From a bacterium (GTDB lineage Bacteria; Patescibacteriota; Minisyncoccia; Phycocordibacterales; UBA2100), in assembly GCA_030647655.1 (NCBI GenBank), contig JAUSJH010000009.1, positions 18,196-82,195 on the forward strand: a stretch of DNA of 64,000 nucleotides. The letters run 5' to 3'. Below are positions 7,115-42,744 of this stretch, piece after piece (the first letter of the stretch is position 1; every line of letters begins with the position of its first letter). The notes under the pieces were generated by a model that worked only from the letters and a program-made list of their open reading frames with translations, made no database searches and was not told where the DNA came from. Made by a program: the position numbers and the translations under genes.

Positions 7115-7169
7115 GTCGTGCGATGGTACACGAAGTGCTGTGGATATGCAATCGCGGTATGATACGGAG

Positions 7170-7742
7170 ATGATCGGTAACTTAAGCGGTACAGTCTTTG
7201 CGATAAGACCGGGCTTTGCAATAATCTCTGTGGGAGGTGTCGGGTACAAAGTGTTCGTCACACGCGAGATGCTTCTCACCCTGAAACCGAAAGAGGAGGC
7301 CGCGTTCTGGACACACCTTGCCGTACGAGAGAACGCGCTCGACCTCTACGGTTTTGGGGGCGAAGAAGAACTGCGACTTTTCGAGCTTCTCCTCACCGTT
7401 TCCGGCATCGGACCGAAATCCGCGCTCGCTATTCTGGATATCGCGTCCACCGAGACCCTGCGCAGTGCGATTTCGGGAGGGAATGCAACGTACCTCACCA
7501 AGGTCTCCGGCATCGGCAGGAAAACCGCCGAGAAAATCGTGCTTGAACTTAGAGACAAGGTAGGAGCATCGGCCGATGGAAGTGGCGCATCTCTCCACGG
7601 TGACGAAGAGGCGCTTGAGGCGCTCCGTTCGCTCGGATATTCGCAAGCGGAGGCGCGCGATGCCCTGCGCAAAGTGCCGCAAGAAATCGAAGGCGGAAGT
7701 GCGCGATTGCGCGAGGCCCTCAAAATAGTCGGGGGAAAGTAG
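7170..7742 (+). CDS. ruvA: Holliday junction DNA helicase RuvA
   Basis: 190 aa, MIGNLSGTV…GVGYKVFV…LLTVSGIGPKSALAIL…VSGIGRKTAEKIVLEL. It has the OB domain, two HhH motifs and the C-terminal domain. Confidence 0.85.
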   Translation: MIGNLSGTVFAIRPGFAIISVGGVGYKVFVTREMLLTLKPKEEAAFWTHLAVRENALDLYGFGGEEELRLFELLLTVSGIGPKSALAILDIASTETLRSAISGGNATYLTKVSGIGRKTAEKIVLELRDKVGASADGSGASLHGDEEALEALRSLGYSQAEARDALRKVPQEIEGGSARLREALKIVGGK

Positions 7743-17626: not shown

Positions 17627-17710
17627 AACGTGAATTTGAACGATTAATACCCAAACTATAATGCGCACCGGATGAAGAAAAGATGAATTGCCATCCGAGG
17701 CACAAAGCCT

Positions 17711-18262
17711 CTATGCGACGTCGTCCGTTTTCTCAAGCTGCTTGATGCGCAATTCAAGCTCATGGGTGCGCTCCCTAATGGCTCTCTTTAGTTTGACGGC
17801 ATAGTCGCGAAGGTTCTCCTCTGTCTCTTTTCTCCTAGTAATATCTTCCATAGCAAGCAATACTATGGGGCGCTTGGCTTTCGGAGCGTAAATCCTGCGC
17901 GCATTCAAGCAAATTATTTTCCGTCCTATCCTTGGGAAGTCATGATCAACCTCGTAATTAGCAAAAAACGTGCTCTTGGGAAGGATCTTGCCTAAAAGCT
18001 TACGCAAAGCCGGAATATTCCACTGACCATCACCGAGCTTGTATACAAGCGTATGCTCCGTTGCCTTCTTTGTAACGCGAAAAAATCTATAGAAGGTTTT
18101 ATTTGCCGAAAGTACCCGCAGATTCTCATCAAGGATGAGAAAGGGTTCACGAGCAGTATCTATGACGGTAGAAATGTATGCCCACGCGACACTCCACATC
18201 ACGTCTCCTTCAGGTAGGATGTCCGAGTGTTTTTTCGCTGTTTTCTTTGCCAAATGTTTCAT
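17711..18262 (-). CDS. standalone PAS-domain protein
   Basis: 183 aa. The PAS fold is similar to the PAS segment of HK 19675..21063 (…FLILDENLRVLSANKTFYRFF…NIPALRKLLGKILPKSTFFANYEV…ICLNARRI…LLAMEDITRRKE). Confidence 0.6.
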   Translation of the reverse strand: MKHLAKKTAKKHSDILPEGDVMWSVAWAYISTVIDTAREPFLILDENLRVLSANKTFYRFFRVTKKATEHTLVYKLGDGQWNIPALRKLLGKILPKSTFFANYEVDHDFPRIGRKIICLNARRIYAPKAKRPIVLLAMEDITRRKETEENLRDYAVKLKRAIRERTHELELRIKQLEKTDDVA

Positions 18263-18288
18263 GATGGAGCGAATCCATCATACGGACG

Positions 18289-19386
18289 CTATGATGAGGA
18301 TAGGGTGAAGGAGAAAGTGGTCCCTCGCCCGACGACGCTTTTCATGGTGAGCCTCTCGTGATGTCTTTTCATGATCTCTCTCGATATATAGAGTCCCAAT
18401 CCCGTTCCGGCGACATCTACCACAGCAGTATCATCTCCGCGGAAAAAGCGGGTGAATATCTTCCGTTGGTCTTTCTTCCCGATACCGGTACCGAAATCCT
18501 CTACAGAAATGATGCACTTATTCTTTCGAGCGCCGACGCGTACGAGTACCTTATTGGAACGAGGAGAATATTTGACGGCATTGGTAAGAAGGTTTATCAA
18601 CACTTGTACGATGCGCGCACGATCTGCGCGCACCTGAAACCCGAGCGTTCCTTTTTTGCAGATAATTTTGTGCGTTGGGGCGCTATTTTGAAAGTCTCGG
18701 ATGACCATTGTAACGAGCGCGCTTGGATTAAAGACTTCTTTACGAAGTTCCAATGTACCACTTTCTAATTTACTCACGACAAGCAAATCCTCGACAAGCC
18801 TCGTAAGCCGGGCCGTTTGAGTTTGCATGTCACGCAACATATGCAGATTCTTTTTATCACTTTCCAACTGCAGACCCTTTGCCAAGAGTTCTGAATAGAG
18901 GGCAAGCGTCGTGATCGGATTTTTCATCTCGTGGGATGCAATGCCAATGTATTCCTCACGCTTCTTCTCGCGCGCTTTTTGTTGCGTAATATCCTGTGTG
19001 ACCAAAACGAAAAATGTGGCGCCCCTCTTGCCCTCTCTGACGCGCGTAATAAAGACCCTGGCCCAAAAATGTGAGCCGTCTTTCCGTACACGGATACCCT
19101 CAGCAGTAAAGCCCCCTTTCTGCGCCGCCATTGCGAGAGCCTTTATGAATACCTCCTGGCGTATTTCTTCTTTTGAGAAAAAGATGGAATAATTTTTTCC
19201 TAGTACTTCTTTTGCACCATATCCCATCATTCTCTCCGCGCTCATATTCCAGCTGATGATACGGCCGGTATTATCGAGCATGCATATCCCATGCCCATTC
19301 GTATTATCAAAAAGTAGACGAAGTCGGCCACCGTCGCTTTCGTCGGCGATTTTTGTTGCGTATTTTCTTGCGTGAAGAGATTTCAT
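18289..19386 (-). CDS. cytoplasmic PAS-sensor histidine kinase
   Basis: PAS (ISWNMSAERMMGY…), H-box IASHEMKNPITTL, and HATPase N/G boxes (LTNAVKYS…VEDFGTGIG…GTGLGLYI). Confidence 0.8.
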   Translation of the reverse strand: MKSLHARKYATKIADESDGGRLRLLFDNTNGHGICMLDNTGRIISWNMSAERMMGYGAKEVLGKNYSIFFSKEEIRQEVFIKALAMAAQKGGFTAEGIRVRKDGSHFWARVFITRVREGKRGATFFVLVTQDITQQKAREKKREEYIGIASHEMKNPITTLALYSELLAKGLQLESDKKNLHMLRDMQTQTARLTRLVEDLLVVSKLESGTLELRKEVFNPSALVTMVIRDFQNSAPTHKIICKKGTLGFQVRADRARIVQVLINLLTNAVKYSPRSNKVLVRVGARKNKCIISVEDFGTGIGKKDQRKIFTRFFRGDDTAVVDVAGTGLGLYISREIMKRHHERLTMKSVVGRGTTFSFTLSSS

Positions 19387-19674
19387 ACGGCGAAGTTAGC
19401 GCCACATCGTGGACACTACTACCTCCGGACGACCCAAAAGAGCCTCCTCTCTAAGCGGTTTGGCTGCGCGTTCACGACATTAACATGTTCTTTTATTGGG
19501 ATGCACATATCTTTTCCTCGTCAAGAGGGTACAACTTGTGTAAAACCCTGTATAACTTGTGGACAGGGTCCTAAACAGTACCCTATCGTGCCGATATATC
19601 AAAGACACTTCATCAAAGCTTCATGGACTATGAGGTATAAGAGATAAGCACTCATCGAACCGACAGGGACATAG

Positions 19675-21063
19675 GTGCACTATAGAGGAGCTAGAAGAAG
19701 CTCCCATTTTGGGTTTTGGACAACATATATGGTTAACAAAACACAACCTAAGCCCAACGCAAAACGCATTCCACGGGCGGATGTTCGCTTTGGTGCAGCA
19801 GTGGTCGCAAGGGACATCGCCGAGCAAAAAAGGGCAGCGGATTTGGTGATTGCCAACAAAGAACTTGTCTTTCAAAACAAAGAGAAAGAAAAGCGCGCGG
19901 CAGAGTTAGTCATAGCCAACAAAGAACTTGCCTTTCAAAACAACGAAAAGGAGAAACGAGCTGCGGAGTTAGTGATTGCCAACAAAGAACTTGCCTTTCA
20001 GGCTAAACTAGAGCAATCCCTCTCGTATGCACAGGGTATTTTAGGCACGATGCGAGAACCTTTGCTGGTCTTGGATAAAGAATTGCGCATAAAGACCGCA
20101 AACGAGGCCTTTTACATGATGTTCGCTATTACTGAGAAAGATACCGAAGGAGCGCTCATTTACGAATTGAAGAACCGCCGGTGGGACACGCCGCGACTGC
20201 GAGAAGCACTTGAAAAGATCCTTCCCCAGAAATCATCTTTCCATGATCTTGAGATCACATTCGACTTCCCAGGGCTCGGGTCGAAAATCATGTTGTTCAA
20301 TGGACGCAGGCTTATTCAAAGTGAAGTGGGCGAAGAGCTCATCCTTCTTGCGATGCAAGATATCACCGAGCAAACACTCCTCCAAAAGCGTAACGACAGC
20401 TTCATGAGTATGGCAAGTCACGAGCTCAAAACGCCGGTGACCACAATTAAAACGCTCGTGCAAATACTTCAGAAGCAATATGAAAAAAGCGACGATAAGA
20501 CGCTTGTCGGATATCTCATGCGAATGGGACAGCAAATCGACCAGCTGACGAAACTCGTGACCGACCTCTTGGATGTCTCGAAGATCAAAGCCGATAAATT
20601 TGAGCTCGAGGAAAAGACCTTTGATTTCGACCCGCTTGCCTTAGAACTTGTTACCAGTTGCCAGTTCCTCTCACTCGACCATACGATCGTGCTTCGAGGC
20701 AAAACAAACGAAAAAGTCTGTGGGGATCGCAATGCGATAGGCAGAGTATTCACCAACATCATTGTGAATGCGATCAAGTATGCACCGAGCGCGGATGAGA
20801 TTATTGTTACGCTCTCTCATACCAAGAGGGACGTCTGTGTGAGTATCCAGGATTTTGGCATAGGTATTGCACAGGGTCATATAGATAAGATATTTCAGCG
20901 TTTCTTTCAGGTCGATAACGAAAGTGGACAGAACTTTTCTGGGCTTGGAATCGGGCTCTATATTACTCAAGCTATCGTGACGCAACACAAGGGTCGCATA
21001 TGGGTTGAGAGTAGGGAGGGCCAAGGCTCTACGTTCATCTTCACATTCCCAATAGCGGTGTAG
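19675..21063 (+). CDS. histidine kinase with N-terminal 20-aa tandem coiled-coil repeats, PAS, HisKA and HATPase_c domains
   Basis: H-box MASHELKTPVTTI; N/G boxes NAIKYAP…QDFGIGIA…GLGIGLYI. Alternative start at 19729 (MVNKTQ). Confidence 0.8.
   Translation: MHYRGARRSSHFGFWTTYMVNKTQPKPNAKRIPRADVRFGAAVVARDIAEQKRAADLVIANKELVFQNKEKEKRAAELVIANKELAFQNNEKEKRAAELVIANKELAFQAKLEQSLSYAQGILGTMREPLLVLDKELRIKTANEAFYMMFAITEKDTEGALIYELKNRRWDTPRLREALEKILPQKSSFHDLEITFDFPGLGSKIMLFNGRRLIQSEVGEELILLAMQDITEQTLLQKRNDSFMSMASHELKTPVTTIKTLVQILQKQYEKSDDKTLVGYLMRMGQQIDQLTKLVTDLLDVSKIKADKFELEEKTFDFDPLALELVTSCQFLSLDHTIVLRGKTNEKVCGDRNAIGRVFTNIIVNAIKYAPSADEIIVTLSHTKRDVCVSIQDFGIGIAQGHIDKIFQRFFQVDNESGQNFSGLGIGLYITQAIVTQHKGRIWVESREGQGSTFIFTFPIAV
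19826..20006 (+). repeat. ~2.7 tandem copies of a 60-bp repeat inside the HK gene (encodes EKRAAELVIANKELAFQNNEK units)
   Basis: Near-identical 60-mers are visible in the sequence (…gtgattgccaacaaagaacttg(t/c)ctttcaaaacaa…). Confidence 0.7.
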
Positions 21064-21075
21064 GAGGAAACGCAT

Positions 21076-21450
21076 ATGAACGCTGCTTCTGCCAAGAAGA
21101 AAAAGGTATTGGTCATCGACGACAATACGGGGATTTTGTTTGCCATGCAGCAAGCATTGGGACTAAAAGATTATGAGGTGCGTATTTCTGAAACATTCGT
21201 TGGGGTCGATGCGATAGTAAGAAACCCGCCCGACCTCATCTATCTTGATATATCTCTTGTCGGACAGGATGGACGTGAGGTCGCTCAAAAACTAAAAAGT
21301 GACGTGAGGACAAAAGATATTCCGATTATTATTCTTACCGCGTACCCAAACGCAGGCGAACTGGCAAAGGAAGCTGGAGCAGACGACTACCTTCCAAAAC
21401 CTTTTGAACTTGAACATCTCTGGGAAATGACGGCGAAGTACACGTCGTGA
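21076..21450 (+). CDS. single-domain CheY-like response regulator
   Basis: KKVLVIDDN…LIYLDISLVGQDG…DYLPKPF. Confidence 0.8.
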   Translation: MNAASAKKKKVLVIDDNTGILFAMQQALGLKDYEVRISETFVGVDAIVRNPPDLIYLDISLVGQDGREVAQKLKSDVRTKDIPIIILTAYPNAGELAKEAGADDYLPKPFELEHLWEMTAKYTS

Positions 21451-29954: not shown

Positions 29955-30092
29955 GAGGGGCTCGATTCTCTCAGCGACGCTTTCGGGAGAAAGTTGCAAC
30001 GCGGACCTAAGGATGGCGGAAGCAAGCTTCCGCAAGCGGAAGAACCGCCGCGTCCTTGGTAAAGTTACTATCGTTGAGAGAATCGTGACCCC
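29955..30092 (+). ncRNA. candidate structured RNA element in the divergent ruvB/upstream intergenic region (strand undetermined)
   Basis: Long-range helix GGGGCTCGATTCTCTCA (29957..29973) pairs with TGAGAGAATCGTGACCCC (30075..30092), enclosing hairpins CTTTC-GGGA-GAAAG, GCGGAAG-CAAG-CTTCCGC and GCGG-AAGAA-CCGC, closed by GGAC/GTCC. Found by eye only. Confidence 0.3.
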
Positions 30093-30202
30093 GTCACGAG
30101 ACATTAAACACTGGGCGAGAGTGTAGCATATAAAAATCAAAAGTCAATAGTGCCCTTGAGTCCTCGAAACCGCTCCCAATCGAGCGCAGAGAGCCAGCTC
30201 GT

Positions 30203-31216
30203 ATGACAAAAGACCAAAGCACAATAGAAAAAAGCCCCCGCTCGCTCGATCAGGCGCTGCGCCCTGAATCGTGGAAGGAATACGTGGGCCAATCCGGCAT
30301 CAAAGAGAACCTTCGCATCCTCCTCACGGCCGCCAAAGGCCGCAATCATCAGCCAGAGCACGTGCTTCTTTACGGCCCGCCGGGGCTTGGCAAGACTACG
30401 CTCGCGCACTTGATGACCAAAGAGATAGGGGCCAACATGCGCTCCACCTCCGGCCCCGCAATAGAGCGCGTGGGCGACCTCGCCGCCATCCTCACCAATC
30501 TCGCCTCCGGCGACGTCCTCTTTATAGACGAGATACATCGCCTCAACCGTACGATAGAGGAAGTGATGTACCCCGCGATGGAGGCGGGAGTCCTCGACAT
30601 TGTGATAGGCAAAGGGCCGAGCGCGCGCACGGTACAGCTGGAGCTCCCTCCATTCACGCTGATTGCCGCCACCACGCGCATTTCGATGCTCTCAGCTCCG
30701 CTTCGCTCGCGATTTTCCGGCGGCACGTTCCGTCTGCAATATTATTCTGATGACGAGATAGCAGAAATCTTGAAACGCTCCGCAAAAATACTAAAAATTG
30801 ATATCGACGCCGCGTCGCTGAAAGAAATCTCGACACGTAGCCGCGCGACACCGAGAACTGCCAACTACTTGCTGAAACGCGCGCGGGATTTTGCGGAGGT
30901 GAATGAAGAAAAATTAGATTTGAAGACAGTAAAAAAAGCGCTCGCGCTTTTGGAAATAGACGAAGGCGGGCTCAACCAAACCGACCGCGACATTCTCTCT
31001 ATCATCGTGGAGAAATTCAACGGCGGGCCTGTGGGACTCAAAACCATCGCGGCGTCACTTTCCGAAGAAGAGGCGACTATTGAGGAAGTGAACGAGCCAT
31101 ACCTTATGCAACTCGGCTTTCTGGAGCGCACCCCCCGAGGCCGCACCGTCACCGCAAAAGGCCGCGAGCACATCGGCGCCGACACACCTCGTTCGCAAGA
31201 AAAACTCATCTCATAG
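30203..31216 (+). CDS. ruvB: Holliday junction DNA helicase RuvB
   Basis: LLYGPPGLGKTTLAHLM Walker A, DEIHRL Walker B, sensor motifs, and a C-terminal winged helix. Confidence 0.9.
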   Translation: MTKDQSTIEKSPRSLDQALRPESWKEYVGQSGIKENLRILLTAAKGRNHQPEHVLLYGPPGLGKTTLAHLMTKEIGANMRSTSGPAIERVGDLAAILTNLASGDVLFIDEIHRLNRTIEEVMYPAMEAGVLDIVIGKGPSARTVQLELPPFTLIAATTRISMLSAPLRSRFSGGTFRLQYYSDDEIAEILKRSAKILKIDIDAASLKEISTRSRATPRTANYLLKRARDFAEVNEEKLDLKTVKKALALLEIDEGGLNQTDRDILSIIVEKFNGGPVGLKTIAASLSEEEATIEEVNEPYLMQLGFLERTPRGRTVTAKGREHIGADTPRSQEKLIS

Positions 31217-31265
31217 AAACAAAACGCCGCGAAACCGCGGCGTTTTGTTTTTAGTAATCAGTCCC

Positions 31266-32825
31266 CTAGCTAAGAAGGATCCGCAGATTGCTCGACAGCA
31301 CTGACCGAAGATTAATCAGTAGCTGTAGTTTATCTTCATCACTGGCCTCGCGTAGTTCCGCCACCGCAAAAGAGTAGATGAGGAAATCAACCGCTGATAT
31401 GATTGCGCGTTCGCCCGCATAGTCAGATAGAAAGCGCTCGTAGAATGGGTGATCTACATTCCATGCGATTACCGTTACCCGACCCTCTTGGTAGGGCTCA
31501 AACAGAACTCCAGCCGCGGTCATATGACGATGTTCGAAACGACAGATCGGCCCCGGCGTGCCTGGATGTCGAGGCTCTTTGGGCTTCTTATCGACATCCG
31601 GATGTTTCGACTTCTCCTTCGATTCTTTTTCGTCACCCTTAATCTTTGTTGAAGTAGGCTTAGCAAGTAGCGCCGCTTTTCCAGAGATTTGTTTCTCTGC
31701 CTCCGTGTGGCTAACCTTGATGTCCTCCCCAGTAGCCTGCTGCGCTTTTTTTGCACGCTGACGCACGCCGGTAAGCTGGGGCTCAAGTACGCGCTTGATC
31801 TGATCTACCGCTGATTGGGTGGGTTCAATACCGCGTTTTGAGAAGTTTACACCCATCACATCGTCAAGATCTGTTGAGAATATGATTTCGGCGCGGAAGC
31901 GGTTGAAGTCACCGTGCTTTCGCTCGCTGAATGGCCACCATCCTGCCGCAATCTCGCGGTTATTTCGAAGTACATAGACGCCCTGATTTGGAATGTTAAT
32001 TCCATACCCCTTATTCCCAGCTGCTCCAAAGTCTGGTATCAGAGCGACACGAAGAATTACTTTTTCCTTGCCCCCGGGCGTTTCTATGTCGAACCAATCA
32101 TCGATCCACATCTCGGTACCTTTGGTCTTGCGAAAAAGGGGGTCTTCCGCTACAACCGCGCTACCATTTACGACAAGCTTCAATCCATTCTCAATGAACT
32201 GTCGATATGTTTGCCCAAGCCGACCTTTGAGAATCGTCGCGAATACCGTTGTATTGCTGTTTTGAACTTGATCACAGAGCGAGAGATGAACAACAGTTCC
32301 ATGAGCCAGTTTCAACGCAATGTTGCCTTCTTTGAGAACACCGGCAACTTCGCGACTGTCGACAAGACCGAATGCGCGCACAAACCTATTTTTTGCAACA
32401 ATCTCATCTGTATCGATGACGCCTACGTGCCACTGGTTTTCGTTCTCAGGCTTTGAATAGACTGCTGTTCGGCGACACAGCGAGAGCGATGCCGTCGAGA
32501 GCCCCATCCCAAATTTACCAAGGCTACCAGACATTTTTTCGGTATCCGACCCTAGCCTAAGTGCTTGATTGAGCGTCTCAGACTCCATGCCTGAGCCGTC
32601 ATCGACAATGAGGAACTCTACCTCTTTGTTTCGATGATACACCGAGATTTCGACGGTGCCCGCGCCGGCATCGACCGAGTTGTCGACAATATCCATAAGC
32701 GCAGAATAATTGTCGTAACCTACCTTTCTAAGCGATGTGATGAACTTCCCCGCGTTTGGGGTGTTGTCATCGTTGAATTTCAATTCCATAACTTGTGTTG
32801 CCTGCACTCTATTCGCTATGAACAA
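31266..32825 (-). CDS. GHKL-superfamily ATPase (HATPase_c_3 / MORC-like) with a Lys/Glu-rich linker and C-terminal domain
   Basis: Bergerat-fold motifs MDIVDNSVDAGAGTVEI (N-box), LIVDDGSGM (G1), GKFGMGLSTASLSL (G2). The gene is visibly more AT-rich than ruvB/yebC. Confidence 0.65.
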   Translation of the reverse strand: MFIANRVQATQVMELKFNDDNTPNAGKFITSLRKVGYDNYSALMDIVDNSVDAGAGTVEISVYHRNKEVEFLIVDDGSGMESETLNQALRLGSDTEKMSGSLGKFGMGLSTASLSLCRRTAVYSKPENENQWHVGVIDTDEIVAKNRFVRAFGLVDSREVAGVLKEGNIALKLAHGTVVHLSLCDQVQNSNTTVFATILKGRLGQTYRQFIENGLKLVVNGSAVVAEDPLFRKTKGTEMWIDDWFDIETPGGKEKVILRVALIPDFGAAGNKGYGINIPNQGVYVLRNNREIAAGWWPFSERKHGDFNRFRAEIIFSTDLDDVMGVNFSKRGIEPTQSAVDQIKRVLEPQLTGVRQRAKKAQQATGEDIKVSHTEAEKQISGKAALLAKPTSTKIKGDEKESKEKSKHPDVDKKPKEPRHPGTPGPICRFEHRHMTAAGVLFEPYQEGRVTVIAWNVDHPFYERFLSDYAGERAIISAVDFLIYSFAVAELREASDEDKLQLLINLRSVLSSNLRILLS

Positions 32826-32850
32826 AGTGCTCGGCGAATTAACTAGCGAA

Positions 32851-32877
32851 CAAAATAAAAAGCACCTTCCAGGTGCT
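32851..32877 (-). terminator. intrinsic terminator on the minus strand just upstream of the GHKL ATPase start
   Basis: Perfect hairpin AGCACCT-tcc-AGGTGCT followed on the minus strand by a TTTTATTTTG run. Confidence 0.5.
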
Positions 32878-33130
32878 ACTCGAAAAAAATCATGTATTCA
32901 TATGGTTGTTTTGGGATCGGTGCGCTTTGCACCAAACCACTAGCTAGTTACTAACCGCTCGATGCGTTATGCATCAAACGTCATCTCATCCTAGCAAGGA
33001 GAATGCAAAAGTCAAACTCCTGTTGTGTACAAAAGATTTGTAATCGACACATTCACGACACGAGTGGGGATAAGAGCGATTGTGCTCAAACGAGCGTGTA
33101 CTATGTAGGTCACAGAGCGCACGGTAAGCA

Positions 33131-33165
33131 AGAGACCCTCCATTGCTGGAGGGTCTCTGCTTTTT
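33131..33165 (+). terminator. strong intrinsic terminator on the plus strand with no upstream plus-strand CDS (possible sRNA 3' end)
   Basis: 12-bp stem AGAGACCCTCCA-ttgc-TGGAGGGTCTCT followed by GCTTTTT. Confidence 0.55.
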
Positions 33166-33377
33166 CGGCCATTCAGGGGACCGCGTAACCTGCTCCACGT
33201 ATCTTGATACGATCTCCTACGCTTCGCACATTACCCGACTGCACTGACCGAACGATTCCTGCAACGTCTCGACACTTGCGCGTCAATAGATCCAAGGAAC
33301 TGTCATCTGTTCGTCGGGGATTACTCCCGTCCACTGGATGACGACCGACGCACGGTTAAGCACATCGATAGAGGAAA

Positions 33378-33460
33378 TACTACAATGTAGAAAAAGACGC
33401 GTGTAACGTGGCAAACCCCCAAAATAGTGGATTTCGAGTGGATAGAACTGTGGAAAACTA
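33378..33460 (+). promoter_or_regulatory. two copies of a 15-bp palindromic operator-like site upstream of yebC
   Basis: TACTACAATGTAGAA (33378..33392) and AACTACAGTGTAGAA (33446..33460). The second overlaps a TAGAAT -10-like hexamer ~18 bp before the yebC ATG. Confidence 0.4.
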
Positions 33461-33477
33461 CAGTGTAGAATGGCCTC

Positions 33478-34008
33478 ATGTCCGGACACAATAAATGGGC
33501 TCAAATTAAGCGCCAGAAAGGTGCAGCCGATGCGGCGAAAAGCAATCTCTGGGGTAAGCTCGGCAAGCGCATCGCGGTTGAGAGCAAAAAAGCCAATGGC
33601 GATGTAAATGCGGCGTCCCTGCGTGCCATCATAGAGACCGCAAAAAAGGCGAACATGCCCAAAGACACAATAGAACGGGCGGTCGCAAAAGGCACTTCGG
33701 CCGACGCGGCGGCACTCGAGGCAATCACCTATGAGACATACGGACCCGGCGGCGCGGCAATAATCATCGAAGCCTTGACCGACAGCCGTAATCGCACGGC
33801 GCAGGAAATAAAACATCTTTTAAACGAGCAGGGTCTGGCACTTGCCTCCCCAGGGAGCGCTCTTTGGGCATTCGAAAAAACCGCAGAGGGCTATACGCCC
33901 AAGACGTTTGTCCCGCTTTCTAATGAGGACGACGAAAAATTGATGAAAATTCTCGAAGCCATCGACGCCCACGACGATGTGGAGGAGGTGTACACGAACG
34001 CCGAATAA
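33478..34008 (+). CDS. yebC: YebC/PmpR-family transcriptional regulator (short form)
   Basis: MSGHNKWAQIKRQKGAADAAKS…GKLGKRIAVESK… is the canonical YebC N-terminus; 176 aa. Confidence 0.8.
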   Translation: MSGHNKWAQIKRQKGAADAAKSNLWGKLGKRIAVESKKANGDVNAASLRAIIETAKKANMPKDTIERAVAKGTSADAAALEAITYETYGPGGAAIIIEALTDSRNRTAQEIKHLLNEQGLALASPGSALWAFEKTAEGYTPKTFVPLSNEDDEKLMKILEAIDAHDDVEEVYTNAE

Positions 34009-34015
34009 GCGGTTC

Positions 34016-35185
34016 CTAAAACCAGAGGACTCGTAGCCAACTGACAACCCTATTAATGAACGGCTCGGGAGTCGCGATAATTGGAGTTGGGTGCATAAGC
34101 TCTGCATTCTCTTTCTGCATCTGTCGGCCCTGCGCGGCGACGGCGGGATCAAGAGACGGCATGGGTCCCTGATTCAACCTGTCTAGATAATCCTGTGACA
34201 AGCTGCCGAAATCATCCGTAATAAACGTTTTTTCGTTTGCATGTGGACCGAAAAAATTCACCGCGGGGCCAAGGAGGTAATCTCCAACAGCGCCCGCAAT
34301 CTTGCTCATGTCATCCGAAAACCCCAAGTCTCGCGCAGAATTCCACTCGTTCTGTACTGATAGCACGACCTGCTCCGCAAAAGTCTTCGGCTGAGCATTG
34401 ATTGTAACCTGGAAGGGAGCGTCGCCACCGAACGTCTGTAATACCTGCATCGGAGTTATAGGGGAAGGCTGGGCTGACGTTTCTTGCACCAATGTTTGTG
34501 CGCTTAGATTAACAGCCATCTTGTCGATTGCTTTGGAAAGAGGCTCGTTGTCTTCCGGTTTTTGGACTGCGGTAATTTCCGGTCGATCTTCGAACGTCTG
34601 TATCTGAGATAAAACATCCTGCGATGGAACTGGAGTTCCTTGCTGTGAGCTAGGCGCTTGATAGAGACTCGGAAACAGCTCCCCGAGCGTGCCGTTGCTC
34701 GATTGGAATTTCTGTTCCGCATAGCCCACCATGCGGGCAACGGCATCGTCGGCTTTTTGTGCAGTATTTGCGTCGCAATTGATGACTGTGGGGCACAGAG
34801 ACGGAATGTACCCCCAGTCCGCATGCTGACTGGCCGTGAACGCGGCACGTGAGCCTACCGGTTTGCAATTTTCTCCTCCAGAGTCGCAATACAAAACGAC
34901 ACATTTCGTGCTGTCATTGCCGCGCGAGATATCCACTTTCGTTTTCGAATTCTCACCCGGACTCACTTTGTATACATACCCGGGCAGGCACTGATATTTT
35001 TGCTCGTTCTTTTCCTCTTCCCCCGCGCCAGAATTTTGAGAAACTGCGCCGGCCGCCGCGTGGAGCCCGGAGTAATTGAGCGTACCGAAAATGGGAGTGA
35101 CGAGGGCTGCAACCCCAACCACGAACGCCGCTAGGCCCTCCATGTCCATGTTGAGATGATACCACGCACTGATATTGCGCCACAC
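34016..35185 (-). CDS. hypothetical secreted/membrane-anchored protein
   Basis: 389-aa ORF with N-terminal hydrophobic segment GLAAFVVGVAALVTPIFG; Ser/Gln/Pro-rich, several Cys; no motif recognised. Confidence 0.5.
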   Translation of the reverse strand: MWRNISAWYHLNMDMEGLAAFVVGVAALVTPIFGTLNYSGLHAAAGAVSQNSGAGEEEKNEQKYQCLPGYVYKVSPGENSKTKVDISRGNDSTKCVVLYCDSGGENCKPVGSRAAFTASQHADWGYIPSLCPTVINCDANTAQKADDAVARMVGYAEQKFQSSNGTLGELFPSLYQAPSSQQGTPVPSQDVLSQIQTFEDRPEITAVQKPEDNEPLSKAIDKMAVNLSAQTLVQETSAQPSPITPMQVLQTFGGDAPFQVTINAQPKTFAEQVVLSVQNEWNSARDLGFSDDMSKIAGAVGDYLLGPAVNFFGPHANEKTFITDDFGSLSQDYLDRLNQGPMPSLDPAVAAQGRQMQKENAELMHPTPIIATPEPFINRVVSWLRVLWF

Positions 35186-35261
35186 GAGAGCATGACGACT
35201 ACCCGGCCACCCTGCTCGGATTGTCTAATCTGGGGCTTTTTCTTTGGGATATACTCTTTGT

Positions 35262-36374
35262 ATGAAAGTGCTCGCGAGCCATACGAATAACTACAGAGCA
35301 GACATTATCGGCAGTATGCTTCGTCCTAAATATTTGTTGGATGCGCGGGGACTTTATGCAGCGGGCAAGACACCTGATGCCGAATTCAAAAAAATTGAAG
35401 ACCGTGCAGTGGACGAATGTCTGGCAATCCAAGAGCGTGCTGGCGTTGATGTTGTTACCGACGGCGAAATGCGCCGCGATCACTTCGCAAGTCAGCTTTT
35501 CCAATCGACAGAGGGTTTTAAAAGCATTAAAGAAAATATCGTAGACTGGTACGACAAGGATGAGCGCCTCGTAAAAGACAAAGCAAGCGTGGGGCTCGCC
35601 GGCACGATGAAACGCAAACGCCATCTTTCTACGGAAGAATTTGCATACATGCGCGGCAAAACAAAAAAACCCATAAAAGCCACTCTGCCGAGCCCGACGA
35701 TGTACGCCTACTATTGGGTCCCTGGCATATCGGAGGCTGCGTATCCATCTCCCAAAGAGTACCTTGCGGATGCGTGCAATATTCTGCGGGACGAGGTCGG
35801 CGAATTGGTACGCTTGGGGGCGACGTACATCCAATTCGACGCGCCAGAGTTGGGTATGTTGACCGATCCTCACCAACGAGAGTGGTTTGCATCCAAAGGT
35901 TTCGATCCCGACCAAATGGTTCGCGACGGAGCCGACATGATTAATCAGGTTATTGAGGGGTACAAAGACGTTACATTTGGACTTCACATTTGCCGCGGAA
36001 ATGATAGAAGCCGACACATGGCAAAGGGCTCTTACGCAAGCATCGCGCGCGAGGCTTTCCGCGCGAATGTGCAACGTTTGCTCCTCGAGTACGACGACGA
36101 GCGTTCCGGCGACTTCGAACCTCTAAAGGATGTGCCCGACGACAAAACTGTGGTCTTGGGGCTCATCACCACCAAGTGGCCACGTGAAGAGACCATAAAA
36201 GAGTTGACGGAGCGAATCCACGAAGCATCGCGTTATGTACCGCTCGAACGGCTTGCGCTCAGTACGCAATGTGGCTTCGCCTCCGCCGCGGCAGGTAACG
36301 CTATTCCGTTTGAGATACAGGAGCAAAAACTCAAGCTCGTGACCGAGGTCGCACGCAGAGTTTGGGACGATTAG
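35262..36374 (+). CDS. cobalamin-independent methionine synthase (MetE C-terminal-domain-like, archaeal-type short form)
   Basis: ~370 aa; UROD/MetE-like TIM-barrel pattern (IIGSMLRP…VDVVTDGEMRRDHF…LHICRGN…STQCGFAS). Confidence 0.65.
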   Translation: MKVLASHTNNYRADIIGSMLRPKYLLDARGLYAAGKTPDAEFKKIEDRAVDECLAIQERAGVDVVTDGEMRRDHFASQLFQSTEGFKSIKENIVDWYDKDERLVKDKASVGLAGTMKRKRHLSTEEFAYMRGKTKKPIKATLPSPTMYAYYWVPGISEAAYPSPKEYLADACNILRDEVGELVRLGATYIQFDAPELGMLTDPHQREWFASKGFDPDQMVRDGADMINQVIEGYKDVTFGLHICRGNDRSRHMAKGSYASIAREAFRANVQRLLLEYDDERSGDFEPLKDVPDDKTVVLGLITTKWPREETIKELTERIHEASRYVPLERLALSTQCGFASAAAGNAIPFEIQEQKLKLVTEVARRVWDD

Positions 36375-36395
36375 CAACATGATACATTACACCCT

Positions 36396-37079
36396 ATGAG
36401 AAGCCAAGATATGGACAGGAGGGCACGAGCCGTTGAAAAAGTCTGGGACAAAGAGATGCTCGAAAGTTACGACAAACACATGGGGAAGGTCGAGGGCAAA
36501 GAGCAACCCGAGACCCTTCACTACGTCGCGCAGGAAAAAATGTTTCATGCACTAAAAGAGAAGTTCGGACGGAATGTGGTGAGTATAGGTTCGGGACCTG
36601 GCAATCTAGATGGTGTACTTCTCGATAATGACCGCTTGGTAACGATGGTCGACGTCTCGAAGATCGCCGTACTTAAAGCGTATGAAAAATTTAATAAATA
36701 CGACGGGGCAACTTTTTCCCACCAAGACGCACTTACCATGCGCTTCCCTGGCGAGATTTTTGATACGATCCTATTCTGCAACGCTTTTTATTACTTCGAA
36801 GCCGACGAGCGGGATGCGCTGATACAAAACTGCAAGAATTTGCTTAATACAGGTGGAAAAGTAATTGTGATCGAAGAATTCCCGTTTAAAATAACGATGG
36901 AGAAAAAAGAGGCAGATGCCGTACTTGGAGTCCATTATAATGATATTAGTCCTGATAAAATAGCGGCAATATTTTCGCAGAATGGTTTTGTACTGGAAAC
37001 CCGGGAGAAGATCGTTATTGATAAAACGCCCGAACATGACCTGTATGGATCGGTCTTCGAACTAGCCGGCGCCTATTGA
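36396..37079 (+). CDS. class I SAM-dependent methyltransferase
   Basis: Motif I VVSIGSGPGN, motif II/III region (TMVDVS…FDTILFCNAFYYF), post-I acidic residue. Confidence 0.7.
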   Translation: MRSQDMDRRARAVEKVWDKEMLESYDKHMGKVEGKEQPETLHYVAQEKMFHALKEKFGRNVVSIGSGPGNLDGVLLDNDRLVTMVDVSKIAVLKAYEKFNKYDGATFSHQDALTMRFPGEIFDTILFCNAFYYFEADERDALIQNCKNLLNTGGKVIVIEEFPFKITMEKKEADAVLGVHYNDISPDKIAAIFSQNGFVLETREKIVIDKTPEHDLYGSVFELAGAY

Positions 37080-37120
37080 ATTTCTGTTCACTGCCTCCTG
37101 TTCACTGTAGACTTGTGGAT

Positions 37121-37594
37121 ATGAAGGTACTCGCGATAGATCCCGGATACGGCAGATGCGGAGTGGCGGTTGTGGAGAAGGGCGGCGGCGGAAAAGAGGT
37201 TCTTCTGTATTCGGAGTGCATCGAGACATCGGCGAAAATGGATTTCCCCGCGCGGCTTGCCGTGGTTGTCGATGAGTGTGCGCGACTCATCAAAAAACAC
37301 TCGCCTGACTGTGTCGCGCTTGAAAAATTGTATTTTCAGAATAACCAAAAGACCGCGATGCGTGTGGCCGAGGTGCGCGGCGCCCTCATCGGCGCCGCCT
37401 CAAATGCCGGTTTGAAAGTATTTGAATACACTCCCGGAGAAGTAAAGAGTGCGGCGGCAGGCTGGGGTGGGGCCGACAAAAAGGCCCTTGCACAAATGCT
37501 CCATGCGCTCGTAAACATAGAAAAGAAAATCGAGCGTGACGACGAGTATGATGCAATTGCGATAGCGGTAACACATCTGGCCCGTGCGCGGTAG
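37121..37594 (+). CDS. ruvC: Holliday junction resolvase RuvC
   Basis: MKVLAIDPGYGRCGVAVVE… with catalytic Asp/Glu pattern (…ALEKLYFQNNQKTAM…DEYDAIAIAVTH). Confidence 0.85.
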   Translation: MKVLAIDPGYGRCGVAVVEKGGGGKEVLLYSECIETSAKMDFPARLAVVVDECARLIKKHSPDCVALEKLYFQNNQKTAMRVAEVRGALIGAASNAGLKVFEYTPGEVKSAAAGWGGADKKALAQMLHALVNIEKKIERDDEYDAIAIAVTHLARAR

Positions 37595-40082: not shown

Positions 40083-41180
40083 CTAGCGGTTCAAAGGCAT
40101 GACGAGATACGTGAACGAAGGGTCGGAGACGCCGCGGATGACTAGGGGCTTACCGGCACCGGAAAAGCCCATGATTATTGAATCGGATTCGATGGTTGGG
40201 AGGCAGTCTGCCAAGTAGCCGATGTGGAAATTGATGTCGAGGTCTTCGCCGGAGAGCGCCGCGTCGATAGAGTCGGACATCTCACCAACCTCTGCGCTTC
40301 GCGCCGTCGCGCTGAAAATCTTTCTCTTCGGATACGCGTGAAACCCCACGTGCTGATCATTGCCGGAAAAGACTCGCGCCTTGCGCAGAGTCTCGGCGAG
40401 ATCGTTTTTGAGAACAGTAGCCTCGGTCGCAAAATTCTTCGGCATGATCTCTTTGTAATTCGGGAAGGTGCCGTCCACAACGCGCGATATGTAGCACACC
40501 CCCGGGGCCGCAATCGACATTTGTGATTCGTCCGCCGAAAGTTCGACTTCGCCCACATTGACGTGCTCTAGCACGTGTACGAGTTCGAGCGCATGCTTGA
40601 GGGGAACAAGAAGCTCTACACTTTGTTTCCCCGCTACACCGGAAATTGTTTTTTCCGCTAGTCTGAAAGAGTCGGTCGCGACACAGAGGATGGCTCCTGG
40701 CTTGATAGATACATACACACTACCCAACTCCGGGCGAATCATTGATGGTGACGCGGCATACGACACGGCGGAAATGCCTCGCATTAATTCTTCTCGTGAG
40801 ACGTTTACCCCATGCAAATCCTTAGTTGTATTAAGTGCGGGGAATTCGTCGTGTGGGATTGACTTTATAAGTGTTTTCGTCCCACGTGATTCAATAACAA
40901 GATTCCCCTCTTCCGTCTTAAGTGTTACCTTTTCGCTTGATATTGAGTGTAGTGTTTGGGAAAGAACATTTGCCGGTATCGCTATAATTCCCTTATCCTC
41001 CACCTCCGACGCCACATGTATCTCTATTCCTGCCTCTAAATTAGTTGCTCGTACAGTAATATCCTTCCCTATATCAAGTAAAATACATGAAAGTATTGGA
41101 AGGGATTCTTTTTTACCAACAATACGCTCAGCCAGAACAACAGCATTTAAAATACCTTCCTTTTTTGTTCGAGTCTTCAT
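40083..41180 (-). CDS. dnaN: DNA polymerase III beta sliding clamp
   Basis: 365 aa, three-domain clamp pattern; adjacent to dnaA. Confidence 0.85.
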   Translation of the reverse strand: MKTRTKKEGILNAVVLAERIVGKKESLPILSCILLDIGKDITVRATNLEAGIEIHVASEVEDKGIIAIPANVLSQTLHSISSEKVTLKTEEGNLVIESRGTKTLIKSIPHDEFPALNTTKDLHGVNVSREELMRGISAVSYAASPSMIRPELGSVYVSIKPGAILCVATDSFRLAEKTISGVAGKQSVELLVPLKHALELVHVLEHVNVGEVELSADESQMSIAAPGVCYISRVVDGTFPNYKEIMPKNFATEATVLKNDLAETLRKARVFSGNDQHVGFHAYPKRKIFSATARSAEVGEMSDSIDAALSGEDLDINFHIGYLADCLPTIESDSIIMGFSGAGKPLVIRGVSDPSFTYLVMPLNR

Positions 41181-41394
41181 ATATTTCTATATATAAATAC
41201 TATTACTATTATTAGTGGTGGGGATAGTGTGGAGAAGGTGATTCCCCTGCGCACTCTGTGGATTATTTAATGACTGGTATCTGTTGAAAACCTCAGTCAA
41301 TAATTCTAGCAACATGTGGAGAGCTCGTCTCATAAGTTTTTGTTGTGCATAAGTGCCATGTTGTACGTGATGGGTTCACAGACTATACACATAG
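41181..41394. promoter_or_regulatory. dnaA-dnaN intergenic region with DnaA-box-like motifs and an AT-rich stretch (candidate oriC/DUE)
   Basis: ATATTTCTATATATAAATACTATTACTATTATTAG (AT-rich). GTGGTGGGGATAGTGTGGAG at 41215..41234. TGTGGATTA (one mismatch to TGTGGATAA) at 41257..41265. TGTGGAGAG near 41316. Confidence 0.55.
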
Positions 41395-42744
41395 TTATGC
41401 ATGTATGAGCGTGCGGATATGATCGAGCTCCTGCTCGAGCGAGGTGTTGGATTTAATTTCCTCTTTTATTTTTTCGCACGAGTGAATAACTGTCGTATGG
41501 TCACGACCGCCAAGCTTTTCCCCTATCGAGGGATACGAGACGCTGAATTCCTCGCGCAACATGTACATGATAATCTGGCGCGGCTTCACAACTTCTTTCT
41601 TACGGGTCTTCTCGTAGATACTTTTTTCGGGGATATCGTAGTATTGGGCGATGCGGCGCACCACTTCGTCCACCGAGACTCCGCGGTTGGGCTTCACGTT
41701 GTGTTTGATGAGCGCGCGAACGTCCGCGTGTGACACCGCCTTGCCTTTGAGCTGTGATTTACACACAATCATGTTAAGGACCCCCTCAAGTTCGCGGATA
41801 TTTCCACGCAGGCTTTCTGCGATGTATTGGACGATGTCTTCGGGGATCGAGAATCCATGCTGCTCGATCTTGGCTTTGATGATGGCGACACGGGACTCCA
41901 TATCCGGCTCGGGGATTTCTGCGATCATTCCTGCGGCGAATCGTCCCCTCAAGCGATCTTCAAGCCCCGGCAGGAGCGCGGGGTGCTTGTCGGATGAGAA
42001 TACGATTTGTTTGTTGTTGTCCCGCATCGCATTGAAAAGGTGGAACAGTTCTTCCTGCGTCTTTTCCGTGTTCGCGATGAATTGGACATCGTCCATGATG
42101 AGGACGTCGTACTGGCGGTACTGATCCTTGAAATTGTTGGCATGACCCGCGCGCACCGCATTGATGTAATCGATTGCGAAGCGTTCAGAAGTCACATAGA
42201 GAACTTTCTTGTTCGTGTGTGCTTTCTTGAAATAATTCCCGACCGCCTGTATTAGGTGAGTTTTGCCGTGCCCCGTCTGACCGTAGATGAACAGCGGGTT
42301 GTATGCAAGCCCCGGCCGCTCAAGGACTGCGCGCGCCGCAGCATGCGCAAGCTCGTTGAAAGGACCGACCACGAACGTTTCAAAAGTGTAGCGCGGATTC
42401 AGGTTGTCACGTTTGTCTATGTAGAGACTCCCGAGGTCGAGTGAGGTGTTCTCGCCCACCTGCGGCCGTGCCGGCTTGCGCTCCGCCGGGGCTGCCGTGG
42501 AGCGGTGAACTGCGTATTCGACAGTACGAACGGAGCTGTCGAGTCCGCGTAAAGCCTTCATTATGAGCTTGTGGTGCTTTTCCATGAGCCACTCTTTAAC
42601 GATTTTCGAGGGAACGGCCACGTGGACGAGTCCTCCATCGCGGCTTGCGATATCGGTATTCCTAAACCACGTGCGAAATGATGCTTCAGAAGTTCCAAGC
42701 TCGATTTGCACGAGCGCGTTCTGCCATAATTCACGGTTACTCAT
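41395..42744 (-). CDS. dnaA: chromosomal replication initiator DnaA
   Basis: AAA+ Walker A GQTGHGKTHL, Walker B VLIMDDVQF, sensor motifs, and the C-terminal DNA-binding domain. Confidence 0.9.
   Translation of the reverse strand: MSNRELWQNALVQIELGTSEASFRTWFRNTDIASRDGGLVHVAVPSKIVKEWLMEKHHKLIMKALRGLDSSVRTVEYAVHRSTAAPAERKPARPQVGENTSLDLGSLYIDKRDNLNPRYTFETFVVGPFNELAHAAARAVLERPGLAYNPLFIYGQTGHGKTHLIQAVGNYFKKAHTNKKVLYVTSERFAIDYINAVRAGHANNFKDQYRQYDVLIMDDVQFIANTEKTQEELFHLFNAMRDNNKQIVFSSDKHPALLPGLEDRLRGRFAAGMIAEIPEPDMESRVAIIKAKIEQHGFSIPEDIVQYIAESLRGNIRELEGVLNMIVCKSQLKGKAVSHADVRALIKHNVKPNRGVSVDEVVRRIAQYYDIPEKSIYEKTRKKEVVKPRQIIMYMLREEFSVSYPSIGEKLGGRDHTTVIHSCEKIKEEIKSNTSLEQELDHIRTLIHA

Follow-up and report, generated by a model that had tools for sequence, protein, structure and literature searches.

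Why are the genes ruvB and yebC separated, in the 64-kb stretch of DNA analysed here (referred to as the window), by a minus-strand gene for a GHKL ATPase, and does this ATPase gene have an RNA partner? The earlier note on this DNA had described the interval as an AT-rich island and had proposed that the ATPase is accompanied by a plus-strand small RNA (sRNA) of about 250 nt. To answer both questions, about 100 homologous loci (1.17 Mb) and release 15 of Rfam were used for comparison. Judging from these comparisons, we hold it moderately probable that a mobile ATPase cassette resides in an insertion hot spot and that hairpins in its leader would control expression of the ATPase by attenuation as well as at the level of translation.

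Insertion of an ATPase cassette next to ruvB

The genes flanking the ATPase gene were identified with Pfam and NCBIfam as ruvB (30203..31216, plus strand) and as a gene of the YebC family (33478..34008, plus strand), the 176-residue product of which is a short form common to relatives. The minus-strand open reading frame (ORF) between them spans 31266..32825 and matched HATPase_c_3 (PF13589) with an E value of 1.2e-24. ORF calls, Pfam, and NCBIfam agree that a GHKL ATPase gene separates ruvB from yebC, as the earlier note had stated. Its product had been taken to comprise 519 amino acids. We place the start codon at the ATG at 32789, yielding 507 amino acids, and not at the TTG at 32825, because an identical deposited protein (P0001, 507 amino acids, titled "MAG: ATP-binding protein [bacterium]") and 30 aligned homologues begin there; the TTG falls within a conserved hairpin of the leader (HP3, see below). 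The gene for the MORC-like GHKL ATPase, as indicated by Pfam, the alignment of homologues, and the predicted fold, occupies 31266..32789 on the minus strand. The approximately 690 nt from the ATPase start to yebC contain no credible ORF in the ORF list of the window, and this gap had rightly been called noncoding. A small protein gene within it was considered and rejected: the reading frames present are short, relatives do not preserve them as ORFs, and they coincide in part with conserved RNA or host elements.

RuvB of the window is 85-93% identical to proteins of Candidatus Kaiserbacteria (Patescibacteria). The gene order in these relatives is ruvB, variable cargo, a conserved noncoding element, sometimes a small gene, yebC, and ruvC. 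The cargo is a Fic protein in locus L107 and a protein combining SLFN_AlbA_2 and HATPase_c_4 in L109 and L110; L111 has none. Scanning metagenomes for motifs of the noncoding element yielded 35 further loci (L113-L147), and the order ruvB, element, yebC was the same at every one of them where ruvB or yebC was recognizable. The distance from the ruvB stop codon to the element was 45-140 nt without cargo and 0.5-4.5 kb with cargo, which in these further loci included a TIR_2 protein, an NB-ARC+TPR STAND NTPase, an SDH-type (ClpP-like) protease, a BTLCP peptidase, Fic proteins, and a beta-lactamase-like protein. Near the ruvB-side cargo of the relatives (L107-L111 and L113-L147), an integrase was not observed. 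The closest of them, L124/L129 (RuvB 94.6% identical), holds a 0.83-kb pair of helix-turn-helix and Doc-like genes where the window has the ATPase. Similarity to L124 ends at 31182 and resumes at 33064, so that the window differs over exactly 31183..33063, including the last ~11 ruvB codons. Because the relatives hold other cargo or none at the same place, the ATPase gene is cargo, and the gap from the 3' end of ruvB to the element at 33064 is an insertion hot spot in Kaiserbacteria. The insertion between ruvB and yebC was thereby confirmed by synteny, the ATPase gene being absent from close relatives. Anchored by the conserved noncoding element, the hot spot is useful for finding accessory or defence genes in genomes of the Candidate Phyla Radiation.

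Duplicated fragments of the ruvB 3' end were observed in two relatives. One lies just after ruvB in the carrier of Schlafen-like cargo L110 (7130-7181, within an ORF at 7023-7214), and L131 has a second RuvB C-terminal fragment. These fragments suggest that cargo is exchanged by recombination within the last ruvB codons.

The composition of the cassette deviates mildly from that of its surroundings. Its GC content is 0.485 compared with a window mean of 0.526 (standard deviation 0.024), 6.6% of equal-sized segments being as low, and its tetranucleotide distance is within the top 5.5% of such segments. Of the "AT-rich island", the insertion stands, whereas AT-richness was overstated and is weakly supported as a label for the cassette.

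The cassette extends over 31217..33015 (about 1.8 kb) and comprises, on the minus strand, a promoter, a leader of ~190 nt, the ATPase gene, and a bidirectional terminator. These limits were deduced from the conserved leader and the shared 3' hairpin of the cassettes in L001 (82% protein identity) and L002 (56%), which are found in unrelated surroundings, next to large serine recombinases that adjoin tRNA genes. When the sequences upstream of the ATPase in the window, L001, and L002 are aligned, conservation runs from the TTGAC -35 box to the ATG and is absent upstream of the box; 33016..33063 was conserved with nothing compared. Past the ATPase stop codon, the window and L001 have the hairpin AAAACGCCGCG..CGCGGCGTTTTGTTT. 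The bidirectional intrinsic terminator AAACAAAACGCCGCG-AAAC-CGCGGCGTTTTGTTT (31217..31253, both strands), an 18-nt inverted repeat with 94% complementarity, abuts the ruvB stop codon in the window.

Across 100 loci no conserved protein-coding neighbour was found. The neighbours included a serine recombinase at 10 loci, a Dcm methylase at 9, a tyrosine integrase at 8, an N6/N4 methylase at 6, and a MutH-like nuclease or a second GHKL ATPase at 5 each. Relatives of the ATPase were detected on 23 IMG/VR viral contigs, with about ten matches extending to near the protein's C terminus; plasmid and phage collections yielded only ~25%-identical proteins named "ATP-binding protein". As far as these sequence comparisons indicate, the cassette is a self-contained, horizontally mobile, single-gene unit.

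The ATPase consists of a GHKL plus S5-like transducer module (residues 1 to ~375), a Lys/Glu-rich linker (residues 381-412), already noticed before and disordered in the AlphaFold model, and a C-terminal domain (residues 416-507) with the motif WNxDHPFY. The best PDB matches by sequence profile were MORC2/3/4 (E 1e-10), followed by MutL and Mlh1. By fold, the ATPase modules of MORC4 (7k7t, E 2e-15, template modeling (TM) score 0.60), MORC3, and MORC2 ranked best, and SMCHD1 and Hsp90 were also matched; the alignment with MORC4/3/2 spans ~390 columns with TM scores to the target of 0.5-0.6. Invariant in 30 homologues are D33xxD36N37xxD40, D63xG65xG67, G91..G94xG96, G164T165, and K318. The ATP-binding motifs I-IV of HATPase_c_3/MORC-like GHKL proteins (ExxxNxxD, DxGxG, GxxGxG, and GT) are present, with Asp33 for Glu, and the predicted model has an S5-fold transducer with a conserved basic residue, for which K318 is the candidate lysine by inferred equivalence. 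The MORC-like GHKL identity proposed before is in line with these profile matches and with the modelled fold; ATPase activity is assumed. A housekeeping MutL was rejected, given a score of 24.9 bits compared with a cut-off of 180 (TIGR00585/PRK00095), the lack of a MutL_C match, and the absence of the gene from close relatives. In PADLOC and NCBIfam, the MzaB, BbrUII-type, and MutL models all remained far below their cut-offs.

Pfam provided no match beyond the GHKL domain. Structure prediction, which the earlier note had called for, gave a compact C-terminal domain of three strands and three helices (mean predicted local distance difference test score (pLDDT) 87.6, compared with 80.5 for the full-length AlphaFold (AF2) model), and no PDB fold matched it better than E=1. 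A profile of this domain retrieved 364 clusters among 1.84 billion representatives, always at the extreme C terminus of proteins of ~480-565 amino acids or of truncated fragments. By this profile search, the domain is private to the ATPase family. Homologues with 35-45% identity occur in Patescibacteria, Acidobacteriota, Verrucomicrobiota, Planctomycetota, Proteobacteria, Bacteroidota, and Clostridia; one carrier available in culture is Pseudaquidulcibacter saccharophilus SZ9 (L028). The ATPase represents a new family within the known MORC/paraMORC kind, and targeted literature searches revealed no description of this family or its leader. About 360 clusters at 50% identity, from many phyla, are now delimited as a discrete stand-alone family.

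A hairpin shared by the ATPase leaders

When the leader of the window was compared with the homologous loci by BLASTN, only L001 and L002 were recovered. The upstream regions of distant homologues form sequence groups that cross phylum borders. The element shared by them is a hairpin, 5'-UUGGU-(variable stem and loop)-AUCGA-3', which is too short and too variable for a sequence search and was found by structure-aware patterns. Its core consists of the pairs U-A, U.G (74/77), G-C, G.U (70/77), and U-A; the two wobbles are nearly fixed and the top of the stem is variable. A pairing-aware pattern detected 66 copies in 31 kb of sense-strand upstream DNA compared with 58 in 2.38 Mb elsewhere, which amounts to an 87-fold enrichment; overall, the enrichment upstream of ATPase genes is 87-106-fold. 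As many as 64 copies fell into the sense bin at -250..0, and no other bin or strand held more than 3. With selection for the anchors only, 62 of 75 upstream matches had at least two further contiguous inner pairs (shuffles: mean 14, maximum 25), and the same was true for 5 of 54 matches elsewhere. The inner pairs were of different types (first pair: G-C 30, A-U 26, G.U 12; second pair: U-A 29, C-G 17, G-C 8, G.U 7).

A covariance model was built from 15 hairpins of other phyla, leaving out the window, and the whole 64 kb was searched on both strands with filters off. The three best hits were all located within the ATPase leader, and the next best reached 10.4 bits (E 0.93). When the 1.17 Mb from homologous loci were searched, 57 hits had E<0.65, of which 56 were on the sense strand just upstream of an ATPase start. 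These cover 47 of 100 loci, 14 of which were sources of training hairpins. In the covariation alignment 98.1% of the cells were paired and 6 of 8 pairs showed double changes; the covariation score was 0.379 compared with 0.158 for shuffles, and none of 500 shuffles scored as high. Hairpins proximal to the ATPase gene end 9-22 nt ahead of the ATG, with a Shine-Dalgarno sequence in between. At gathering threshold, Rfam 15 matched only tRNAs in the whole window. In 32700..33500, at E<=10, there were only weak, terminator-like hits below gathering score, so the Rfam search suggested earlier for the leader region returned no family, and ten homologous loci had no match at their leaders. The leader hairpin, with no Rfam 15 family and no description found in targeted literature searches, is previously undescribed.

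In the window, the leader is preceded by a sigma-70-like promoter site (32988..33015, minus strand; TTGACT, 16 nt, TG-TAGGAT) with a -35 box TTGACT at 33015..33010 and a -10 box TAGGAT at 32993..32988. TTGAC is invariant in the alignment of the window, L001, and L002, the site is the 5' limit of similarity to the cassettes of these two loci, and TTGACA..TAnnnT is found at the same position in other leader types. Hairpin HP1 (UUGAUGC-AUAAC-GCAUCGA, 32977..32959, minus strand) corresponds to the covariance-model hit at 32978..32958 (15.3 bits, E 0.022) and shows compensatory changes in the alignment with L001 and L002. HP2 (UUGGUGC-AAAGC-GCACCGA, 32935..32917, minus strand) gave the best hit in the window (32941..32911, 18.4 bits, E 0.002). 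It is followed after 15 nt by a mini-ORF, ATG AAT ACA TGA (MNT*, 32901..32890, minus strand), the stop codon of which (32892..32890) lies 12 nt ahead of the stem of the leader terminator AGCACCU-GGA-AGGUGCU plus UUUUUAUUUU (32877..32852, minus strand; stem 32877..32861). This terminator, or attenuator, was detected by the scan and is conserved in L001 and L002; analogous terminators are present in many family members. HP3 (GCACUUUGUUC-AUAGC-GAAUAGAGUGC, 32830..32804, minus strand) is supported by the predicted fold and by the hit at 32832..32802 (15.9 bits, E 0.013), and 14 nt separate its end from the ATPase ATG at 32789. The predicted fold of the whole leader has a free energy of -68.3 kcal/mol (z = -4.6). 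GCACC, the 3' arm of HP2, is also the sequence of the terminator's 5' arm, which makes alternative pairing possible; the match is short and not general.

Both terminators listed in the earlier note are present, on the minus strand at 32877..32861 and on the plus strand at 33131..33158, each with a T-tract. A simple terminator scan of 30000..35000 found 6 terminator-like sites when 5.6 were expected. As this is no excess, the reality of the two terminators rests on their conservation in other genomes.

The mini-ORF recurs at nine loci, which represent three or more leader lineages: one with the window, L001, and L002; L025, from a metagenome-assembled genome of Pseudomonadales, with a strong AGGAG; and L036, L041, L042, L052, and L061. 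The arrangement at these loci is a hairpin, 12-17 nt, ATG-x-ACN-stop (3-4 codons), and a terminator within about 15 nt, the individual stem offsets of 2-15 nt being approximate because the script took the longest stem with G.U allowed. A recognizable proximal hairpin is retained at 7 of the 9 loci. The window leader has two features of a leader-peptide or protein-mediated transcription attenuator: a promoter-proximal leader with an intrinsic terminator before the ORF, in the same order as in other loci, and a leader ORF that stops within the ribosome footprint of the terminator stem. The pairing of a GHKL ATPase with a noncoding RNA postulated earlier has support in a different form: the RNA is not a plus-strand sRNA but a leader in cis, on the strand of the ATPase gene, that carries the family-wide hairpin.

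Other leader types were also seen. The Acidobacteriota type combines a proximal canonical hairpin with a different upstream hairpin, and a terminator was not detected in it. In Patescibacteria leaders designated type (b), antiterminator-like pairing is possible between a 5' CCUUGG and a CCAAGG of the terminator loop. Clostridia-type leaders, located ~250 nt upstream of the ATPase in L034, L037, L040, L043, L054-L059, L064, L065, L069, L074, and L079-L081, have a conserved, wobble-rich 5' hairpin of their own, GAUUGGGU-AUAGN-ACCUGGUC, a long variable middle part, and a GUCUAUCU..AGAUAGAC terminator just before the Shine-Dalgarno sequence. Their hairpin may be a diverged relative of the canonical one.

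Proposed control of the ATPase and rival explanations

A hairpin at the 5' edge of a ribosome-binding site occupies the classical position of a translational operator. We propose that a factor recognizing the hairpin would block ribosome loading next to each copy. If the mini-ORF were left untranslated, no ribosome would sit on the stop codon 12 nt upstream, the terminator would form, and transcription would be attenuated; upon translation of the mini-ORF, the terminating ribosome would cover the 5' arm of the terminator and suppress termination. Bound at the proximal hairpin, the factor would repress translation of the ATPase directly. With the same hairpin ahead of mini-ORF and ATPase ORF, one factor could lower both read-through and translation. 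The factor is probably the ATPase itself, acting via its family-private C-terminal domain. This is the most economical candidate because no other gene travels with the cassette across phyla, and it is also favoured by the co-occurrence of a private domain with a private hairpin and by the match between GHKL dimers and hairpins in twos and threes. In this way, an ATPase of a conflict or defence type that manipulates DNA and is potentially harmful would be kept under tight negative feedback. The sequence comparisons show where the cassette ends, which fold class the protein has, the hairpin motif with its covariation, the geometry of mini-ORF and terminator, and that the plus-strand terminator comes from the host; binding factor, direction of regulation, and biological role are what we infer; it is context alone that suggests a role in defence or conflict. 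The family and its covarying hairpin offer a testable handle on the control of such ATPases and perhaps on what they bind.

A further step would be that the C-terminal domain of the dimeric ATPase binds the UUGGU/AUCGA hairpin and that the ~130-nt leader RNA serves as a decoy or antitoxin in addition to being a cis operator. We rate this combination as unlikely, a decoy or antitoxin role of the terminated leader RNA being less likely than autogenous repression. If it were true, the cassette would be an RNA-gated single-gene MORC-type module for abortive infection or DNA surveillance, spreading between phyla and into the small genomes of Patescibacteria.

Several observations weigh against control by leader hairpins as outlined here. 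About half of the family loci lack the canonical hairpin, and the Clostridia-type leader has a different, divergent 5' hairpin. Patescibacteria type (b) leaders have hairpins and a terminator and no mini-ORF, so the mini-ORF step does not apply to all leaders. Covariation was scored on an alignment fitted to the model, in which training sequences make up 15 of 78 rows. On the protein side, Asp33 takes the position of the catalytic base in place of the usual Glu, the PDB fold search revealed no recognizable RNA-binding fold in the C-terminal domain, and PADLOC gave only a weak partial hit to MzaB.

The second terminator belongs to the element that anchors the hot spot. This conserved noncoding element of Kaiserbacteria (33064..33452, plus strand; ~390 nt) is 70-82% identical to relatives without the ATPase, and it is host DNA, not part of the ATPase cassette. 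It starts with a DnaA-box-like TGGGGATAAG (consensus TG(T/G)GGATAAG), at the place of which five relatives carry TGTGGATAAG, containing a perfect DnaA box. Then follow CGTGTACTAT..CGCACGGTAA, the terminator, and ~290 nt of conserved sequence, the last part of which is TAGTGGATTTCGAGTGGATAGAACTGTG, just ahead of yebC; a block CGTGTACTAT..ACGCACGGTAA precedes the terminator, and TAGTGGATTTCGAGTGGATAGAACTGTG closes the second block. The plus-strand intrinsic terminator (33131..33165), identified by the scan, has a 12-bp covarying stem (33131..33158) and a T-tract. Compensatory substitutions between genomes, with fixed flanks, can be read directly from the alignment, the stem variants being GGCTCCC / GGGAGCC, GACCTCC / GGAGGTC, ATGCCCCGG / CGGGGCAT, and ACGGCCC / GGGCCGT. 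RNAalifold missed the terminator in the host-element alignment because MAFFT misaligned the variable stems. The terminator lies ~100-190 nt past the ruvB stop codon where relatives have no cargo. Element DNA directly follows ruvB in L111 (7029-7256) and the Fic cargo in L107 (8266-8620), and the hairpin is intact even when 4.5 kb away from ruvB, which points to a function of its own. The element might act as a ruvB terminator or as the source of a 3'-derived sRNA, might attenuate or insulate the yebC-ruvC operon, or might anchor recombination; none of these candidate functions depends on the ATPase. No Rfam family matched the element.

A direct repeat of 28 nt (24/28 identical) is shared by the 3' coding end of the ATPase gene (31282-31309) and the host element (33225-33252), and the 3' end of the ATPase mRNA would have its complement in any plus-strand RNA made from the element. 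The repeat is probably due to chance. A role of the two copies as att sites was rejected, because the host copy pre-exists in relatives without the ATPase (21/28 in L124) and the other copy is constrained coding sequence.

The plus-strand sRNA proposed in the earlier note would occupy 32880..33170, end at the strong terminator, and act as a partner of the ATPase. The terminator is real and no plus-strand coding sequence lies upstream of it in the window, as had been observed. However, at least 35 Kaiserbacteria loci, which have other cargo or none and lack the ATPase, share the terminator and its flanks (from 33064 on), 32880..33015 is the antisense of the ATPase leader, 33016..33063 is conserved with nothing, and a promoter-like plus-strand site was not found in 32880..33130. 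The interval thus straddles the junction between the ATPase leader (to ~33015) and host DNA (from 33064) and is not a unit, which leaves this sRNA hardly tenable. Only slightly better placed is the idea that the inverted repeats are DNA operators for a dimeric DNA-binding repressor rather than RNA structures. Their positions, on the promoter or just past it and close to the start codon, are frequent ones for operators, but the half-sites are never identical as DNA (TTGGT versus TCGAT), pairing needs the U.G and G.U wobbles conserved in 74/77 and 70/77 copies, the motif is confined to the sense strand, and the conserved halves are 5 to about 16 nt apart with covarying bases in between. An RNA element is favoured by the wobble pairs, the sense-strand restriction, and the varying spacing of the conserved halves, and we regard a DNA operator as very improbable.

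Two other explanations accept an RNA element and assign it a different partner or role. The leader might be a riboswitch-like sensor of a small molecule or ion, or might depend, instead of on the ATPase, on a host factor that is universal, for instance a ribosomal protein or an RNase. Promoter, structured leader, terminator, and ORF form a typical riboswitch layout, a universal ligand or host factor would also account for portability across phyla, and the CCUUGG/CCAAGG pairing of type (b) leaders resembles an antiterminator. What is conserved across leader types, however, is only a simple hairpin of 7-11 bp with variable top and loop in 2-3 copies; a conserved multi-helix junction or pocket was not seen and Rfam gave no match, so that we consider this explanation improbable. 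Somewhat more credit, though still little, is due to a type III toxin-antitoxin-like or abortive-infection module, in which a leader RNA of ~130 nt (32981..32852; HP1, HP2, mini-ORF, and terminator) would accumulate separately and neutralize the ATPase until its loss upon phage infection set the ATPase free. In the ToxIN design, a promoter, repeated RNA elements, and a terminator precede the protein gene. The cassette layout matches this design, with two hairpin copies 42 nt apart ahead of the terminator; the cassette is a mobile one, its hot spot being occupied in relatives by toxin-antitoxin and defence-type cargo, and the family-private C-terminal domain co-occurs with the hairpin. On the other hand, the protein has a GHKL/MORC fold and not that of a ToxN- or AbiQ-type endoribonuclease, and the hairpins are two and dispersed instead of forming a tandem repeat array. 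Moreover, a third hairpin lies past the terminator at the ribosome-binding site, and this proximal hairpin is the sole copy in many family members, in which a terminator went undetected. Its position at the ribosome-binding site points to cis control of translation, as envisaged for control of the ATPase by its leader hairpins.

Neighbouring features and known systems

The window contains a second insertion relative to the relatives, at 34016-37079 between yebC and ruvC (37076-37594). It encodes a 389-residue protein without Pfam match on the minus strand, a Meth_synt_2 (MetE-like) protein, and an S-adenosylmethionine-dependent methyltransferase. The yebC-ruvC gap of relatives measures 0 to 3 kb, and several have ruvC directly after yebC. 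YebC comprises 176-182 amino acids in these Kaiserbacteria compared with ~240 in typical YebC/PmpR; the family profile matched the short YebC in two stretches, and its NCBIfam score of 179.8 is below the cut-off of 243. Just upstream of yebC, relatives encode small proteins (134-172 amino acids) consisting of the DnaA C-terminal domain alone. The genes dnaN and dnaA are located at 40083-42744, ~8 kb from the ATPase cassette, and three DnaA-box-like sites (41228-41352) lie in the 214-nt spacer between them, which is probably the replication origin region. An origin at the ATPase site was rejected, as the GC skew across the window is weak and the better DnaA-box cluster is the one at 41.2-41.4 kb between dnaA and dnaN. 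The lowest GC content of the window (0.46) was measured at 17700-21100, where two PAS-domain histidine kinases and a small PAS protein are encoded. Among the homologous loci, matches to LOOT RNA (RF03000) were found in L021 on the opposite strand, ~240 nt upstream of the ATPase (5620-5745, minus strand), and in L001 ~1.7 kb downstream of it (9934-10056, minus strand). In L010, a tmRNA gene directly follows the ATPase gene.

Bacterial MORC-like and paraMORC ATPases are presumed ancestors of the eukaryotic MORC chromatin silencers. Within the portion of the work of Iyer, Abhiman & Aravind (2008; PMC2292703) drawn on here, prokaryotic MORC/paraMORC GHKL ATPases are linked to restriction-modification systems; in the papers found, they are described mainly on the basis of their gene neighbourhoods, and a role in restriction-modification was deduced. 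The family of the window shares with them, as described there, a GHKL domain with ATP-binding motifs followed by an S5-like transducer with a conserved Lys, and a patchy, laterally mobile distribution, and some of its loci adjoin DNA methylases or MutH-like nucleases. It differs in that it stands alone at most loci, without a conserved superfamily II (SFII) helicase or endonuclease partner; the cassette itself contains no gene for an SFII helicase, an endonuclease, or a DNA methylase. It also has a C-terminal domain of its own without fold match, Asp for the catalytic Glu, and a dedicated leader RNA, of which the same portion of PMC2292703 makes no mention.

The best named hit was MzaB of the MZA anti-phage system (PADLOC PDLC02204, NCBIfam NF041932), with similarity over the GHKL domain and transducer (residues ~22-374). 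The PADLOC search proposed earlier did produce this weak partial hit, covering residues 22-297, whereas the score is far from the cut-off (98.6 versus 850 bits in NCBIfam) and the C-terminal part is unmatched. Genes for MzaA, MzaC, MzaD, and MzaE were not found near the ATPase among the window ORFs with Pfam and NCBIfam. Assignment to MzaB was rejected on account of the score below the equivalog cut-off and the absent partner genes. VcSduA, a fusion of GHKL ATPase and DUF4263 nuclease (Shedu type I-D) that was tested against phage (PMC12137116), resembles the ATPase in being a single polypeptide with an N-terminal GHKL domain, a middle domain, and a C-terminal effector-like domain, and in its mobile, defence-island context. 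The C-terminal domain of the window protein, in contrast, has no DUF4263 or PD-(D/E)xK match. Shedu type I-D was rejected as well, there being no Pfam match beyond GHKL and no PDB match better than E=1 for the C-terminal model.

On the RNA side, type III toxin-antitoxin systems (ToxIN, AbiQ/AntiQ) likewise reside on mobile DNA, with a single protein gene preceded by repeated RNA elements and a terminator. They differ from the cassette, which encodes a GHKL ATPase and not an endoribonuclease and has two dispersed hairpins in place of a tandem array, with a further copy at the ribosome-binding site. With attenuation leaders and autogenous operators (the pyrBI leader peptide, PyrR, ribosomal-protein leaders, and phage coat-protein operators), the leader shares its promoter-proximal position, a short ORF ending within the ribosome footprint of a terminator, and a protein-sized hairpin bordering the ribosome-binding site. 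It is set apart from them by the UUGGU/AUCGA hairpin and its link to a MORC-like ATPase, which match nothing in Rfam 15, and by the presence of the same hairpin at both control points.

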